Shown piece after piece: positions 13,703 to 61,686 of a stretch of 64,000 nucleotides of DNA. How positions within the stretch are numbered: the first letter of the stretch is position 1; every line of letters begins with the position of its first letter. The notes beneath the pieces are model-generated. The model was given only the letters and a program-made list of their open reading frames with translations. It did no database searches and was not told the DNA's origin. Position numbers and translations under genes: made by a program. The stretch is from a virus, in IMG/VR virus record IMGVR_UViG_3300045988_145033, positions 96,001 to 160,000 of that record, one strand, 5' to 3'.

Positions 13703-13957
13703 AATGTGACAACACTAGATTGTGATAAGTTAGGTATATAACATCTGAAGCTAGAAAAACTGGTACAAGAATATTAGTCGACAATATCTTGGATAGAGTG
13801 TACACAATTAGTTCTAACGTAAGTCCGGTAAACCGCATGGAAGCGTTCAGCAATAGGGCGGAAGTGTTACGAGTGGTTTAGAAGCCTTCGGTAGTTTGAT
13901 GCCTTTATATGCAAACCTTATCACCCGGATAGTCTTTTATACTTTTAGAATATAGAT

Positions 13958-14000
13958 AAAAAAAAATAAAGGGAGGCGAAAGCCTCTCCTTATTTTTATT
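13958..14000. terminator. bidirectional terminator between convergent genes (gggaggcgaaagcctctcc)
   Basis: A9 upstream and T-run downstream. Confidence 0.5.
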
Positions 14001-21807: not shown

Positions 21808-23640
21808 ATGGAAGATATAACTTTATATGGAAATGAAGTTCTACCAGAAGTAAGAGAATATATGTATGCTGAAGCTGAAATGACAGTATCGTATAATTTA
21901 ATACAAGATTATTTCTTCAATCTTATGGATAGCTTTAGAGATGAAACTATATACTATGGTGAAGCTGATGATGATGGTGAAGTTAAAACTGGATTTTTTG
22001 CGAAGATAGGACAAATGTTTGTAAAGATGTGGAAAGCTATTATAAACTTTATTAAAACTGTATTTAGAAAAACTTGGGAAATACTTTCAAAACCATTCAG
22101 TTTTAAAATGAATAGAGCTAATAACTCGTCTGGTGGCGGAGGTGGCGGTGGCTCATCAACACCTACTGAAAGAACTGCTGGTGGAGGCGGTGCTGAAGAA
22201 ACTGCTAATAGAATAACTACTACAGATTTTAGACAATACCAAGAAATTGCAAACTTAAGAAGAAATCTAGTTTCATATCTTGGAAAAATGTCTACGGTAG
22301 AAAAGGATAAACTTTTAGCTACATTTGCTATAATGAAGGATGATAGTGTAAAAAATATAAGTCTTACTAAGATAGACAATAAAGGTACATACGATACACA
22401 CATAAAAAATATGGAAGCTATAAAGAAGAACTTGCTTGAAAACTTTAAACTTATATACGAATATGATGAGTTAAAGGATACAGATGCTATTAAAAACGTA
22501 GCAGCTACTCCAGCCATGAACCTTGTGTATAAGGAAGTACCAAAGCATTCTTTAATAAATGTAAAATATGAAAAGCCTAAAGAAGATGAAGAAGTAGTTA
22601 AAAAAGGAATAGCATCTCTATTCGGGATACAAATGATAGCTAAAAAGATTATAGAATGTACATCTAAAGTTACAGATACGACACAAACTGTTCAAAAGAA
22701 AAAGTCTGAAGCTAGTATAGCTAAAGATATTAAGAGTTTGATTAATACAATATTAGCGATAAATATGAGTGATACTGGAACTCACACTGGACTTATAACG
22801 GATAAGGATAATGATATAAAGGTATTTGGAGACTATAATATAGTAGAGCTTTCTAAAGCTGTTAATGTTATATACGTATACTCATTTGGAGAAGATGCTT
22901 TAAAATTACTTAAAAAAGACCCTACAGGTATAATACAAGCTAAATTAAATTCAAATACAGTAATAAAGCCAGAAGCATATGAAACTAATAAAGGTATATT
23001 CTTAAAGAAAATGGTTAATGTCAATATAGCTGACAAGGTGTTAGAAACTGTTCAAATTAAAGCCGATGGAAATCAACCAGAATCTTTAACTTCTATTCTT
23101 AGTAAAGAATTTAAAGCAGCCGAAGGCAAAAAACCAGCAACAACATATGATGCACTAAGAGACCAGCTACTTAATGCTTTAGCGACATTTAAAGATTTAA
23201 GAGAGAATAATGAAAAGAAAGATAACGATGGTAAAACTGAATATGATAAAATAACAGATGAAAATGAAGCAGTTAAAGCGTCTGATATGTGGAAAGGTAT
23301 AGTAACTAATGCTGCAAAGATAATTAAGAATGTAGCTAGTAGTGCACCAGAAATGGCAAGAACTATAACTAGAATAGATACAGCCATAGTTATACATAAG
23401 CACTTATATAATACTATTCTTAGTGTATCGGTTACTGCTAACTTATGGGACGTATATTGTCATATGTATAAGGTAGCTAAAGACAACTTAGAGAATAATA
23501 AAGAGTTGATAAAGGATACAACAGGAAGCGATGACGCTACTAAAGAGCACAAACTAATAAAAGAAAAGTTAGCAGCATTAGATACAGAAGTTGCAGATTT
23601 AAAAGTTCAACTACAAAAAGAACTTAAAGGAAAACAATAA
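21808..23640 (+). CDS. paralog 1 of a propeptide/hydrophobic-helix/poly-Gly family, 610 aa (candidate internal or ejection protein)
   Basis: N-terminal YMYAEAE and YYGEADDDGE, then amphipathic helix GFFAKIGQMFVKMWKAIINFIKTVF, then G7 run. Late element upstream. Confidence 0.5.
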   Translation: MEDITLYGNEVLPEVREYMYAEAEMTVSYNLIQDYFFNLMDSFRDETIYYGEADDDGEVKTGFFAKIGQMFVKMWKAIINFIKTVFRKTWEILSKPFSFKMNRANNSSGGGGGGGSSTPTERTAGGGGAEETANRITTTDFRQYQEIANLRRNLVSYLGKMSTVEKDKLLATFAIMKDDSVKNISLTKIDNKGTYDTHIKNMEAIKKNLLENFKLIYEYDELKDTDAIKNVAATPAMNLVYKEVPKHSLINVKYEKPKEDEEVVKKGIASLFGIQMIAKKIIECTSKVTDTTQTVQKKKSEASIAKDIKSLINTILAINMSDTGTHTGLITDKDNDIKVFGDYNIVELSKAVNVIYVYSFGEDALKLLKKDPTGIIQAKLNSNTVIKPEAYETNKGIFLKKMVNVNIADKVLETVQIKADGNQPESLTSILSKEFKAAEGKKPATTYDALRDQLLNALATFKDLRENNEKKDNDGKTEYDKITDENEAVKASDMWKGIVTNAAKIIKNVASSAPEMARTITRIDTAIVIHKHLYNTILSVSVTANLWDVYCHMYKVAKDNLENNKELIKDTTGSDDATKEHKLIKEKLAALDTEVADLKVQLQKELKGKQ

Positions 23641-37419: not shown

Positions 37420-39890
37420 CTTAAATACGGTATAACTTTCAAGTCCCCCACAGAAGTCATTTCTATAACCCCTATGCTGTCAGCCTCTGTTGCAGAATAG
37501 TATTCGTTATGTGATATAGCAAATACTTGTAAGTCTTTAACTGATGCAAAATTAACTATTATATCTAAGAACTTTCTTTTATTTTCTTTAGACAGAGTTG
37601 CGTCCATTTCATCAAGTATAAAGACATTATAATTTGGTATCATGACGCTATTTAAAGCAAGAGTTGTAGCAAGAGCCATAATAGCCTTCTCACCATCACT
37701 CATCTTAGATATATCGTCTGATACAAACTCATCTTTTTGAACCTTTATTATAAAATCTTTTTCAGTTATTGTAAAATCGTGAACTCTATAAGGAATGTCT
37801 GTAAGCTCTAAGAAGTTATTAGTAATTTCCTTTAGGTTTAGAACTATTCTTCTCATAACTTTAACTGGTAAATGTTTAGTTAAAGTCTCTCTTATTTTTT
37901 CACTATCCTTTTCATCTATTGTGGCTTTTTTGAGTTCATCTTCTACATATTCCCTTAAAGATATATTAAAATCTATTTTCTTTAAACTTTCTTCAAGTTC
38001 TTTTATATTTTCTTCAACTCTTTTAAGTTTCTCTTGAGTCTCAGCTTGCTCTATTCTTTTTGCTTTATCTTTAGCTATGATATTTCTTATGGATACACTA
38101 TCTTCTATTATAGAGAGTTGTATCTCTTGCATATCATTTAAAGACATATTAAAATATTCAGAAGTTTCTATATCTTGTGATACTCTTGGCATCTTCTCAT
38201 TTACCTTTTCTATCTTAGCTAGAGTTTCCTTATATTCTACGTTCCAAGTATCAAGGTTTGTCTTAATTACAACTATATCTCTATTGATAGCTTTATCGTA
38301 CTCTTGTTTCTTTTCAAAATAAGATATAGCAACTCTTGATACATATATTATATCTTCAACAATACCGTCAAAAGAAAAAGCATTGCCATTAAGCAAGTAT
38401 CTTCTGAAGTTATCTTTTGATTTTAGAAAATCTCCGAGTATAGATAAAGTATCATTATTCTCTATAATAGAATATACAAGTTTTATATTATATAGTGCAT
38501 TTACTTGAGTATCATACTTGTCAAGCTTTAACTTAACTTCTGATAATCTTTCTTTACTATCTTGTATATCCTTTACTATAGCTTCATATTCTTCAAGTCT
38601 TGCCCTCATATTTATAAACTCTTTTCTAAGTAAGCAAGTCTCATCTTTGCAAGACTCGGGTGGAGAAACTAGATTATCAGCTACGTATTTCTCTTCTCTT
38701 AATCTTTCTAGTCTTTCTATCTTATTTTCTAATTCACTATATAAAGCTTTAATAGGTGCTACACTTGTGTGTACTTCATTGTATACATCTTTCATATCTA
38801 CAAAATTAGAAATGTCTTCTATATTACTTAGAAACTCTTTAATCTGATTATAACCTAATATAAAAGAAGATAGCTTATCGTTTGTAGTAAAATGTCTTTT
38901 ATTATTAATAGATAAATATTCGTGATTATTAAGTTCTTTCTTTATTACATCTACGTCTATTTCAGATGCTATCTGACTTTCTGCAAGTCTTAAGTTAGCA
39001 TCTACTATATTTTTAGATAGAAGCTCTAATGCTCCTTGAAGTTTTGACTTTTCATTTCTTCTAGCGGACATATAATCTCCTAGAGTTGTAAGTATCTTAT
39101 ACTCATCTATTATATCTCTTATCTTAGTTATTATATCGGAATCTCTATCAAGTTCTTCTACTTGCATTTTAAGCTTTAATACTTCTTCATCAGACATACA
39201 GACATTCTCGTCTTTTACTTTATTTTCTAAATTCTTAAGTTGAGCTATCTCAGCCATAGTATTTGATTTATCCATGAGTAAACTCTCAGAACTTGGAAGA
39301 TTTGATAGTTCTTTTTCTTTTGCTTCTCTTGTCTTTTTAGAATGAATGTATTTTTCAGATATAACTTTCACAAGTTCTTTTGTATCTCCTATCGGTGATA
39401 TAGATTGCATGAAATCTCTTCTTGCTCCAGATTTCATATTTACTATACCTCTGTCTTCAGAATTAAGATACGCAAGTTTCATAAGTTTTGTATCAAGTCC
39501 TATCATCTGCTTAATACGAGCTTTAACTTCATTAACTGATGAACTTTCAACTATCTGAACTTGCTTCCCGTTTTCTATCTTAGCAAGGTCAGCAATACAA
39601 GAATGTGACTCTCCATTAGGTTTATATATATAATGAACTTTATAATCTTCGCTATTATATGTAAAATACACAATCTTCTCACCAGTTTCGTAAGGTACAA
39701 TATCGTATCCGTCGGAAATCGACGGAAGCAAGTTAAGTTCAGATGCGAGTGTTGATTTCCCAGTTCCATTATCTCCTACTATCATAATAGTGTGATAATC
39801 TTGTGGAAATTCTATATCTATTTTAGTTCTTTTTGTTCCTTTTACAAAACGATTAAAATTAACAAGTATTATTCTTTTAAGTTTAACCAT
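37410..39890 (-). CDS. SbcC/Rad50-like (T4 gp46-like) recombination ATPase with a long coiled coil
   Basis: Walker A GDNGTGKST at the N-terminus. ABC signature MSDGEKA and Walker B VFILDEMD at the C-terminus. About 500 aa of coiled coil between them. Confidence 0.6.
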   Translation of the reverse strand: MVKLKRIILVNFNRFVKGTKRTKIDIEFPQDYHTIMIVGDNGTGKSTLASELNLLPSISDGYDIVPYETGEKIVYFTYNSEDYKVHYIYKPNGESHSCIADLAKIENGKQVQIVESSSVNEVKARIKQMIGLDTKLMKLAYLNSEDRGIVNMKSGARRDFMQSISPIGDTKELVKVISEKYIHSKKTREAKEKELSNLPSSESLLMDKSNTMAEIAQLKNLENKVKDENVCMSDEEVLKLKMQVEELDRDSDIITKIRDIIDEYKILTTLGDYMSARRNEKSKLQGALELLSKNIVDANLRLAESQIASEIDVDVIKKELNNHEYLSINNKRHFTTNDKLSSFILGYNQIKEFLSNIEDISNFVDMKDVYNEVHTSVAPIKALYSELENKIERLERLREEKYVADNLVSPPESCKDETCLLRKEFINMRARLEEYEAIVKDIQDSKERLSEVKLKLDKYDTQVNALYNIKLVYSIIENNDTLSILGDFLKSKDNFRRYLLNGNAFSFDGIVEDIIYVSRVAISYFEKKQEYDKAINRDIVVIKTNLDTWNVEYKETLAKIEKVNEKMPRVSQDIETSEYFNMSLNDMQEIQLSIIEDSVSIRNIIAKDKAKRIEQAETQEKLKRVEENIKELEESLKKIDFNISLREYVEDELKKATIDEKDSEKIRETLTKHLPVKVMRRIVLNLKEITNNFLELTDIPYRVHDFTITEKDFIIKVQKDEFVSDDISKMSDGEKAIMALATTLALNSVMIPNYNVFILDEMDATLSKENKRKFLDIIVNFASVKDLQVFAISHNEYYSATEADSIGVIEMTSVGDLKVIPYLSYI

Positions 39891-60405: not shown

Positions 60406-61104
60406 TTACATAGTAACCATACATAGTCCATCTGAGCTATCAAGAGATACAATCTTACCGAATATCTCTTTTATCTCTTTATCATAATCTTCTACAGATT
60501 TATGCTTTTCGTATGTATTTATTATATTATCTAAATAATGAACTATTTGAGCTATTCTTTTAACCCAAGTTTCATCTTTAGCACTTTCTATGTGATGGTC
60601 AGGTTTACCGTCTTTCATTACTATCTTATATATAAGCTCATCAAATACAAAAGTATATACTTTAGCATTATTACCTTCAGGGTGTATAGATAAGCTATCA
60701 AGAACCATAACACTATCAGTTATTGCTTGTTCATTCTCTCTTTTACTCATATCAGTAATAAGTACATTCACATCAAATAACTCATATCCATTATTTCTCA
60801 AATCATTATGAGCTTTATATCTTTCAAGTATAGTCTTATTAGCATCCCAAGTAATATCAGCTTTTTCTATATTATGATTACCTATTACTATTATCTCATT
60901 CTCAGTTCTTATTCTAATAGTAATATCATTATTAAAAGGATGTCCGTTATATATCCCTATTTCAGTTTCTACACTCTTACCTTGCTTTCTATAATGTGAT
61001 GATACACCTTCTACTATATTTGATATAAATATACCTTTATCCTCTTTACTTAAATACTTAGTAGTACCTATTATATCAATATTTAAAACTACCTTACATT
61101 TCAT
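60406..61104 (-). CDS. hypothetical protein, 232 aa
   Basis: RBS AAAGGAGG. Late element AACAttttcgTA upstream. Confidence 0.45.
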   Translation of the reverse strand: MKCKVVLNIDIIGTTKYLSKEDKGIFISNIVEGVSSHYRKQGKSVETEIGIYNGHPFNNDITIRIRTENEIIVIGNHNIEKADITWDANKTILERYKAHNDLRNNGYELFDVNVLITDMSKRENEQAITDSVMVLDSLSIHPEGNNAKVYTFVFDELIYKIVMKDGKPDHHIESAKDETWVKRIAQIVHYLDNIINTYEKHKSVEDYDKEIKEIFGKIVSLDSSDGLCMVTM

Positions 61105-61132
61105 ATTAATTATCCTCCTTTAAACTTAATTA

Positions 61133-61144
61133 TACGAAAATGTT
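61133..61144 (-). promoter_or_regulatory. late promoter AACAttttcgTA
   Basis: Minus strand, upstream of 60406..61104. Confidence 0.4.
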
Positions 61145-61204
61145 CATAAACTCTCAAGTTACAATACTTTTTATTTTTATTAAAAAACTTTTTTCAAAAA
61201 AGTG

Positions 61205-61395
61205 GAAACACTGTTGTGTAAAAAACAACCTTGACGTTGGTTGTTGTCCGAGCAGAGCGAGGAGCTGAAGCGTGAGCGGAACCCCAAACCATCCCGACCG
61301 GTGCCCCTAAGGCAAGGAGTGGAGGGTGGTTAGGGGTTGCCGAGGAACGAGCAAGAACTAATGGCAACGGTGGGAATATCGACCAAGGCAAAAGA
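61205..61395 (-). ncRNA. GC-rich (>55% GC) structured element, candidate small non-coding RNA with its own terminator; identity unknown
   Basis: Sharp GC island in 30% GC DNA. The only ORF here (65 aa) is Pro/Ala-rich, unlike every other protein. Minus-strand hairpin ACAACC-N8-GGTTGT plus T5 lies at 61218-61244. Confidence 0.35.
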
Positions 61396-61500
61396 ATAAA
61401 TAAAAATATAATATAAATGTTACTAAATATACAGAAATAGTAATCCTAAATGGATTATTAATTAATATAAAAAATTATAAACAACATATTGCAGTAGCAA

Positions 61501-61540
61501 AAAAGAAACGGCTTCGCCTACTCCGCCTGCGGCGAGCCAT
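61501..61540 (-). terminator. GC-rich hairpin plus U-run (minus strand)
   Basis: Revcomp ggctcgccgcaggcggagtaggcgaagcc then GTTTCTTTTTT. Confidence 0.4.
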
Positions 61541-61686
61541 ACGATACTGGTTACAGTAGTAGTAATACTATATGTAAATACTTATATAAACAAAATAAAT
61601 GATATTATTTGAGATAAGTATGTCAAAAATGTAATAGTAATATTTCGTTTTTAATTCAGCCTTATTTAGAATTTTTCTTCTAAAAA

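Follow-up and report, generated by a model that had tools for sequence, protein, structure and literature searches.

What does a GC-rich island lying between two minus-strand protein genes of an AT-rich Fusobacterium phage genome encode? The window (the whole 64,000-nt stretch of phage DNA analyzed here) is 95 to 98% identical to the Fusobacterium phages JD-Fnp1, 4, 6, and 7, whose records carry no annotation at the island. When the GC content is calculated over 100 nt, it amounts to 0.52 to 0.64 at 61200-61399, against 0.16 to 0.30 in the flanks. When it is calculated over 80 nt, the peak within 61200-61400 (0.65) is the maximum of the 64-kb window, for which the mean and the 99.9th percentile are 0.31 and 0.60, respectively. 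The second-ranking GC island in the window (22105-22218) corresponds to a Gly-rich linker within a 610-aa ORF. In the complete genome of JD-Fnp1 (180,066 bp), the homologous island at 88699-88902 is the single strongest GC island. The GC-rich island that the original prediction described (61196-61395) is thus borne out as the site of highest GC content both in the window and in a whole genome.

The gene for a 232-aa protein (60406..61104, minus strand) adjoins the island in every related phage. As to this protein, a generic fold is all that was recognized. The phage is a myovirus of 180 kb with large terminase and its own polymerase genes.

We consider that the island is a gene for a structured noncoding RNA of a new family, which would be transcribed from the plus strand and would act in trans as a stable, protein-binding molecule with an exchangeable module. 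This reading as a whole has, in our judgment, an even chance of being correct. The candidate RNA in the window, which belongs to type A as described below, occupies 61206..61392 on the plus strand (approximately 187 nt), the ends being placed from conservation and composition.

Five types of the island in related phages

Related contigs were gathered via the 232-aa neighboring protein (15 clusters, 50 to 94% identical) and via scans with a 5' signature pattern, AAACACT-N2-3-GTKTAA-N1-12-GACGTKR. A GC-rich island is found in every related locus with enough upstream sequence, including where the neighboring protein is only 50% identical. In each of the 14 loci examined, the distance from the start of the AAACACT word to the downstream ATG of the divergent gene is 105 to 109 nt. 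The islands are divided into five discrete types: A (the window, JD-Fnp1, 4, 6, and 7, and the loci L006 and L043), B (L005, L012-L015, L017, and L095), C1 (L008, L009, L011, L028, L031, L045, and L152), C2 (L010, L021-L023, L050, L062, L084, L093, L098, and L150), and C3 (L018). Further contigs fetched via the neighboring protein gave no additional island types.

All types share a 5' block, which consists of AAACACU, a 5-bp hairpin, and GACGUKG, and a 3' block, AAC-R-NN-GGG-NN-U-NN-C with an A-rich run after it. Purines make up 55-65% of the plus strand in all five types. The middle 120 to 150 nt are unalignable across A, B, and C, and no conserved core beyond the two end blocks was found across the five types. 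A covariance model of type C, searched against the window, JD-Fnp1, and the type B loci, detects type C only and neither A nor B, so that homology of the A, B, and C middle modules is unproven. Types A and B are found in phages with neighboring proteins that are 88 to 96% identical, and the middle therefore behaves like a swapped cassette.

Conservation within a type and coding status

Among five type A phages, 6 of 196 columns are variable in the island (3.1%), compared with 38 of 196 in the flanking intergenic DNA (Fisher p = 2e-7), where 21 of 92 and 17 of 104 columns vary (16-23%). In the 5' block, none of the 45 columns is variable. The low variation in the island is apparently due to purifying selection, judging from these alignments. 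Inside the GC-rich body, the variation is confined to the hairpin at 61277-61343 (positions 61286, 61300, 61304, 61320, and 61324). The substitution A61286U in JD-Fnp6 converts an A.A mismatch into a U-A pair, and position 61320 switches between G-C and G.U on the plus strand. Within-type variation falls in predicted loops and mismatches in both type A and type B, and the type B variable positions sit in two predicted hairpin loops.

On the minus strand, the island contains a Pro/Ala/Gly-rich ORF of 65 aa with a TTG start (61194..61391). The frame of this ORF is broken by 1-base indels at 61304 and 61324 among near-identical phages, and the same indels disrupt a 30-aa plus-strand ORF. The 65-aa ORF is absent outside type A islands. 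In C1 and C2, the same 21-nt block is in different frames, the hairpin loop differing by 1 base, and indels and loop-length changes shift every reading frame. ORFs are thus not conserved on either strand. The dismissal of the 65-aa ORF in the original prediction is supported, since the ORF is frameshifted in close relatives and missing from other types; the island is noncoding.

Parts and predicted fold of the candidate RNA

The conserved 5' block (61206..61239, plus strand) is composed of AAACACU, a short hairpin, and GACGUUG, and these words are found in types B and C as well. The 5' hairpin, GUUGU-GUAAAAA-ACAAC (61213..61229, plus strand), is read directly from the sequence. An alternative hairpin, AACAACC-UUGACGUU-GGUUGUU (61224..61245), pairs 61224-61230 with 61239-61245 and, when read on the minus strand, is followed by UUUU. 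This hairpin arises from an 8-nt insertion that type C does not have, and it is therefore restricted to types A and B. The hairpin and the adjacent minus-strand T-run had been pointed out from the letters alone and are indeed present, as are the complementary segments CCCCAAACC/GGTTAGGGG and GGCAA/TTGCC.

The following parts are all described on the plus strand. The first GC-rich domain (61247..61280), closed by UCCG/CGGA with purine-purine appositions, is a thermodynamic prediction only. It holds four GAGC words, and GAGC occurs 5 times in the type A payload where 1.1 occurrences are expected (p = 0.001). A long imperfect hairpin, in which CGGAACCCCAAACCAUCCC pairs with GGGUGGUUAGGGGUUGCCG (61277..61343), appears in the consensus fold of four type A sequences. 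Within its span lies AAGGAGUGGAGGGUGG (61315..61330), the complement of a tract discussed below for its anti-Shine-Dalgarno (SD) character, with a substitution and an insertion within type A. A possible local hairpin, GUUGCC...GGCAAC with a purine-rich loop of 21 nt (61336..61368), is seen from the sequence and competes with long-range CAACG pairing to the 5' block; the consensus fold pairs 61365-61373 with 61209-61217. The conserved 3' block, CAACGGUGGGAAUAUCGACC (61365..61384), is defined by the alignment of types A, B, and C. A long-range helix that closes the 5' block against the 3' block could not be established for all types; plausible pairings are seen in A and B, but in different registers, and the pairing is weak in C.

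The type A plus-strand fold has a predicted energy of -71.5 kcal/mol with z = -3.7, compared with z of about -1.2 to -1.4 on the minus strand. The z values for types B and C are -0.2 to -2.7, and strong thermodynamic support is found in type A only. The type A fold is paired at its ends and open in the middle, with a long arm; types B and C form several short hairpins.

Covariation between types

Pairing-preserving changes are observed in several helices. The type C hairpin reads UUCG-GA-GUUC-GAA-GAAC-GA-CGAA in C1 and C3 and CUUC-GA-GUUC-GUGA-GAAC-GA-GAAG in C2. Three of the four outer pairs differ on both sides between the two forms, which have the inner stem and the tandem G.A loop in common. 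In this tandem-GA helix, all of the 40 alignment cells of type C are paired. For the two type C helices tested together, 95.6% of the cells are paired, as opposed to 30 to 52% when the partners are slid by 1 to 3 columns. The 5' hairpin has five pairs in all types, namely UCGUG-UAA-CACGA in C1 and C3, UCGUU-UAAC-AACGA in C2, and GUUGU-GUAAAAA-ACAAC in A and B. In C2, a G-to-U change plus an inserted A restores the fifth pair.

Further changes of this kind are seen at the base of a variable arm (CCGAA/UUCGG to CCGGA/UCCG), in an inner hairpin (GCC-GAAA-GGC to GGC-GUCAA-GCC), and in another hairpin, in which one pair is gone from both strands (GCAC/GUGC to GCC/GGC). Very few lineages underlie these apparently compensatory changes, the comparison being essentially that of C2 with C1 and C3. 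The near-invariance within type A and the changes that preserve pairing in helices correspond to the behavior of a conserved gene for a structured RNA, in agreement with what had been predicted from the window.

Probable strand of the candidate RNA and alternative explanations

Structural features suggest that the RNA is probably read from the plus strand. The folding z is lower on the plus strand in all of the eight sequences. The consensus minimum free energies are -34.5 (plus) versus -25.3 kcal/mol (minus) for type C, and -63.1 versus -51.6 kcal/mol for type A. The original prediction had assigned the element to the minus strand and proposed folding with homologs as a check; in both sets, the minus orientation gives the worse consensus energy. 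The plus-strand loops include GAAA (twice), GUGA, and GAGA, and the reverse complements contain neither GNRA nor UNCG loops (UUUC, UCAC, and UCUC take the place of the former). The conserved tandem G.A on the plus strand becomes a U.C/U.C loop on the minus strand, and several plus-strand G.U pairs turn into A.C mismatches. The island is purine-rich on one strand and both flanking genes on the other. Watson-Crick covariation is neutral with respect to the strand.

Signals for transcription of the plus strand should also be noted. No convincing plus-strand promoter was found in types A, B, and C2. In C1 and C3, TTGACA-17-TACAAA is seen by eye directly 5' of AAAACAC; the promoter scan missed it because its -10 element ends in A. 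No plus-strand terminator was found 3' of the island. As a separate possibility, AAACACU was considered as a general phage promoter motif and rejected, since the 64-kb window contains its GTGWWA form at two sites only; the AAAACACT form, found in types B and C, has one occurrence, at an unrelated site.

An RNA from the minus strand would run in the direction of the flanking genes and stop at the hairpin and U-run, immediately ahead of the promoter of the 232-aa gene; it would be either a small RNA rich in C and U or the 3' portion of a transcript begun farther upstream. On the minus strand, a short hairpin and then a T-rich run close the island in every type: AACAACC/GGUUGUU and UUUU in types A and B, and UCGUG-UUA-CACGA followed by AGUGUUUUGU in type C, a terminator-like arrangement that was picked up by the scan against an expectation of 0.2 sites. 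The invariant AAACACU is read as AGUGUUU directly 3' of the hairpin on this strand, and the orientation of both neighboring genes as well as the covariation, which suits either strand, fit the proposal. The putative terminator stems are, however, weak (5-7 bp with 2-3 G-C pairs), the U-run in type C does not abut the stem, the minus strand folds worse in every comparison described above, and anti-SD content is not a feature of the family. We regard a minus-strand RNA as rather unlikely. The original prediction also included a riboswitch or attenuator for 60406..61104, that is, a cis-acting minus-strand leader that works through the hairpin and the U-run. The order on the minus strand (GC-rich domain, hairpin with U-run, approximately 100 nt, RBS, and ATG) is what such a leader would have. 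However, the sensor domain is replaced wholesale by unalignable sequence in phages that retain the same gene, and a good predicted sigma-70-like promoter for the 232-aa gene, TTGAGA-17-TATAAT (61129..61157, minus strand; 11 of 12 consensus matches), sits between the hairpin of the island and the gene. Adding that no riboswitch family matches at E<=10 and that the structural features favor the opposite strand, we consider such a leader very unlikely.

The remaining alternatives concern what the island does rather than its strand. The purine-rich plus strand in all types, the low GC content of the next 100 nt beside the island (0.16) and of the type C spacers (approximately 0.10), and the conserved genome position would suit a replication element, in which a transcript rich in purines and in G stays hybridized as a persistent R-loop beside an AT-rich unwinding region and primes DNA synthesis (compare T4 and ColE1-type origins). 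This is very unlikely, since the compensatory changes, the GNRA loops, and the tandem G.A point to selection for a folded RNA and not for a hybrid; moreover, the repeat search of the intergenic region detected neither iterons nor repeated boxes, and the cumulative GC skew follows gene orientation with no switch at the island. A compact, GC-rich RNA with GNRA loops that is nearly invariant within each type could also be a new self-cleaving ribozyme or an aptamer soaking up a small molecule. The five types, however, have no common core beyond the end blocks, no ribozyme or riboswitch family is matched, and neither hammerhead nor twister core words are found by inspection, so that a catalytic or ligand-binding RNA is scarcely likely. 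The foreign composition and the small ORFs on both strands might finally be taken as signs of functionless captured GC-rich DNA or of a small-protein gene. Such an origin is hardly credible for a segment that is far more conserved than the neighboring intergenic DNA, is kept at the same site across phages with proteins diverged to 50% identity, matches no other phage group or plasmid, has its 5' signature in no Fusobacterium record of the genome scan, and carries ORFs that are frameshifted between close relatives.

Anti-Shine-Dalgarno tract and G-tracts

The original prediction emphasized a C-rich minus-strand tract, the complement of 61315-61330, as a single-stranded-looking, anti-SD-like sequence. 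The tract is present, but it is partly paired in the predicted fold. It is located in the sole variable part of the island among the type A phages, and types B and C have no counterpart. The plus-strand counts of GGAG, GAGG, and AGGA match those of dinucleotide shuffles in A, B, and C1, and such SD-like 4-mers are below expectation in C2 (0 observed versus 4.3) and C3 (1 observed versus 4.8). The proposal of an sRNA that titrates or targets SD sequences is thus not upheld, as the tract is not constant within type A and has no equivalent elsewhere, and the SD-like words are unenriched and, in C2 and C3, depleted. A G-quadruplex in the DNA, also suggested, depends on G-tracts that are not common to the other island types and is likewise set aside.

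Database and literature searches

The 4227 models of Rfam 15 give nothing at the gathering score in the whole window and nothing at E<=10 on the type A island. The type B island gives nothing relevant, and likewise C1, C2, C3, and B at E<=1. ARAGORN finds no tRNA or tmRNA gene in the window, in four related loci, or in the whole JD-Fnp1 genome. When the type A and type C islands were compared by BLAST with 50,697 phage records and 72,556 plasmids, the type A matches were the four JD-Fnp relatives only, and no island sequence matched any other phage group or plasmid. Scans of IMG/VR and a metagenome collection with the 5' signature detect the same phage group only, with no new type. In 185,579 bacterial and archaeal genomes, the pattern has 38 matches, none of which is from a Fusobacterium record. 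The family signature appears to be confined to a group of Fusobacterium phage contigs of approximately 175 to 180 kb.

A match to a known RNA, which would have spoken against the original prediction, was not obtained: the Rfam search is blank on the island at E<=10. A captured fragment of a host structured RNA, another origin that had been suggested, appears to be excluded as far as the Rfam search and the genome scans reach. No earlier description of the RNA family was found in the literature. The JD-Fnp genome paper does not mention RNA genes (PMC9670143) and leaves more than 80% of the genes in these ~180-kb phages without assigned function (PMC9670143). Absent from both Rfam and that paper, the family is one that has not been described.

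Proposed mode of action and comparison with known RNAs

The preferred reading, a trans-acting RNA from the plus strand, can be drawn as follows. The RNA would be approximately 185 to 190 nt long, transcribed divergently from the 232-aa gene, and would start at or just before the conserved AAACACU and the 5-bp hairpin. A 5'-terminal stem-loop is a typical protection of bacterial RNAs against 5'-end-dependent decay. The molecule would fold into successive GC-rich hairpins that carry GNRA loops and G.A internal loops and are joined by purine-rich linkers, and it may build up as a stable scaffold or decoy that acts in trans by binding a protein of the host or the phage. A shared frame for expression, stability, or partner docking may be provided by the conserved 5' and 3' blocks, and the exchangeable middle module (A, B, or C1-C3) would determine specificity. 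More speculatively, the locus could be the RNA counterpart of hypervariable anti-defense protein loci, with a fixed frame and interchangeable, highly structured GC-rich cassettes, each of which would trap a different target in the host (an immune effector, a nuclease, or a signaling molecule) as a decoy or sponge and would be swapped by recombination between coinfecting Fusobacterium phages. We give this extension only a small chance.

Several known RNAs resemble the candidate in part. The species 1 and 2 RNAs of T4 (RNA C and RNA D) are small stable RNAs with no assigned role, located in the tRNA cluster and processed together with tRNAs. As in T4, the candidate is a compact noncoding RNA of 100 to 200 nt in a large contractile-tailed phage; unlike in T4, tRNA genes are absent from the phage, and the island lies by itself, flanked by two protein genes. 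The phi29-type pRNA (RF00044) is likewise a phage RNA (approximately 120-175 nt) whose sequence diverges almost wholly while its genome position is kept. The candidate differs from it in having no Rfam match at E<=10 and no secondary structure demonstrable across A, B, and C, and the phages of phi29 pRNA are small protein-primed podoviruses, as opposed to a 180-kb myovirus with large terminase. The 6S RNA is similar in length (approximately 185 nt) and in the paired ends, open middle, and long arm of the type A fold, and a decoy for RNA polymerase would suit a phage with its own polymerase genes. No Rfam match to 6S RNA is found, however, and types B and C are multi-hairpin rather than rod-shaped. 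Identity with 6S RNA was rejected, since a rod with a central bubble is formed in type A only and not in all types.

The several hairpins and purine-rich linkers are reminiscent of CsrB/RsmZ sponges and of pseudo-ToxI and RNA anti-CRISPR decoys, and discrete alleles at a fixed locus are what an arms race would be expected to produce. Neither a ToxI repeat unit nor a CRISPR-repeat mimic is present in the island. The words GAGC and GCGAG are enriched in types A and B only. Fusobacteria are described in a preprint as lacking CsrA, Hfq, and ProQ (bioRxiv 10.1101/2023.10.30.564711). A CsrA-type sponge was rejected, as the protein to be titrated is missing from Fusobacteria according to the same preprint (bioRxiv 10.1101/2023.10.30.564711). 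KhpB offers no lead as a sequence-specific partner, because it binds RNA without sequence preference (PMC12408800).

The island can also be compared with orphan structured RNA motifs. The Breaker laboratory has reportedly sought such motifs as GC-rich intergenic regions in AT-rich genomes. The island shares with motifs of this kind a conserved, GC-rich intergenic location and covarying helices. It matches none of those curated in Rfam and differs from them in that its middle is exchangeable and unalignable.

Significance

Few lytic phages are available against Fusobacterium nucleatum, which has been linked to colorectal cancer, and the ~180-kb phages are some of these. The island is the most GC-deviant and one of the most conserved noncoding stretches, and it is therefore likely to matter for infection. 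The 610-bp intergenic region, which appears "empty" in these genomes, would hold at least one and probably two RNA genes. If confirmed as an RNA, the island would represent a new phage-specific family with an unusual architecture, in which conserved ends enclose a swappable structured middle, and it would provide a handle on RNA-based host takeover or anti-defense in a host without Hfq, ProQ, and CsrA.

A second RNA candidate convergent with the GC-island RNA

The minus strand beside the GC island (the candidate structured RNA at 61206..61392, for which the plus strand is favoured) carries a candidate small RNA of approximately 95–100 nt within window positions 61495-61626. A near-consensus promoter, TTGACA-16-TATCAT, is predicted at 61626..61599, and the GC-rich hairpin GGCUCGCC...GGCGAAGCC at 61545..61510, followed by UUUCUUUUUU, would form the 3' end. 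In this orientation, the candidate is convergent with the GC-island RNA. The element is kept in the phages with type A and type B islands, and two type C phages (L011 and L018) show a diverged version of it.

The place occupied by this candidate in type A corresponds, in the type C phages, to that of a 30-aa strongly hydrophobic ORF, MKKKNILTLSTICFFFSINSFIIYYISYLI, located between the island and the 176-aa gene (L008 2502-2594). The ORF lies on the same strand as the 234-aa gene and is preceded by GGAG 11 nt upstream of its ATG. In the type B phages, approximately 300 additional AT-rich bases are found downstream of the island (L005 2440-2745, and at the corresponding position in L012, L013, and L015). 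This extra segment, which may be a further RNA element, includes a long hairpin that is conserved, CCTATTAGA...TCTAATAGG, together with another small GC patch, GACGAGTATAGTAATACGTCC...GGGATTTAC.

Variation at and within the island

The hairpin at window 61441-61457 should be noted. Its sequence, TAATCC-TAAAT-GGATTA, is identical in the type B contigs L012 and L015, and the loop is reverse-complemented in L005 and L013 (TAATCC-ATTTA-GGATTA). This flip, at the margin of the variable region, represents either a small inversion or a scar left by recombination. Several metagenome contigs (L150, L151, and L017) terminate within the island itself; the end of L150 is just inside the variable arm, at GGCAGAG|UGCUCC. 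Assemblers break contigs where one sample holds several coexisting alleles, and such behaviour would account for these terminations.

Other non-coding regions with the opening motif

Besides the main island, the window contains only one other match to the island-opening motif ACACU-N-GUGWWA (0.72 expected), ACACUAGAUUGUGAUAA, at the start of a second non-coding stretch at 13703-13995 (JD-Fnp1 38781-39070). The stretch includes a patch with a GC content of approximately 0.5 at 13811-13905 and is closed off by a strong bidirectional terminator, GGGAGGCGAAAGCCUCUCC. A closing helix between GUGAUAAG and CUUAUCAC is possible. Both strands fold with only modest z-scores (−1.2 and −1.6), and an Rfam search of the stretch gave no match.

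Beyond the window, a 650-bp intergenic region at JD-Fnp1 153,683-154,337 (L036 3683-4337) contains four copies of (C/A)GGTGTCC(C/T) and two of the hairpin GGTAGGCGAAAGCCTACC, and its minus strand bears another ACACT-ATG-GTGTAA motif. The region may be regulatory or origin-like in nature.

Other genes of the phage

The 396-aa ORF at window 55878..57068 matches an endonuclease/homing-endonuclease PHROG (E = 2e-25). The whole genome of JD-Fnp1 (L033-L036) contains no tRNA genes. At least five of its genes are annotated as multisubunit RNA polymerase fragments, suggesting that the phage encodes polymerases of its own.
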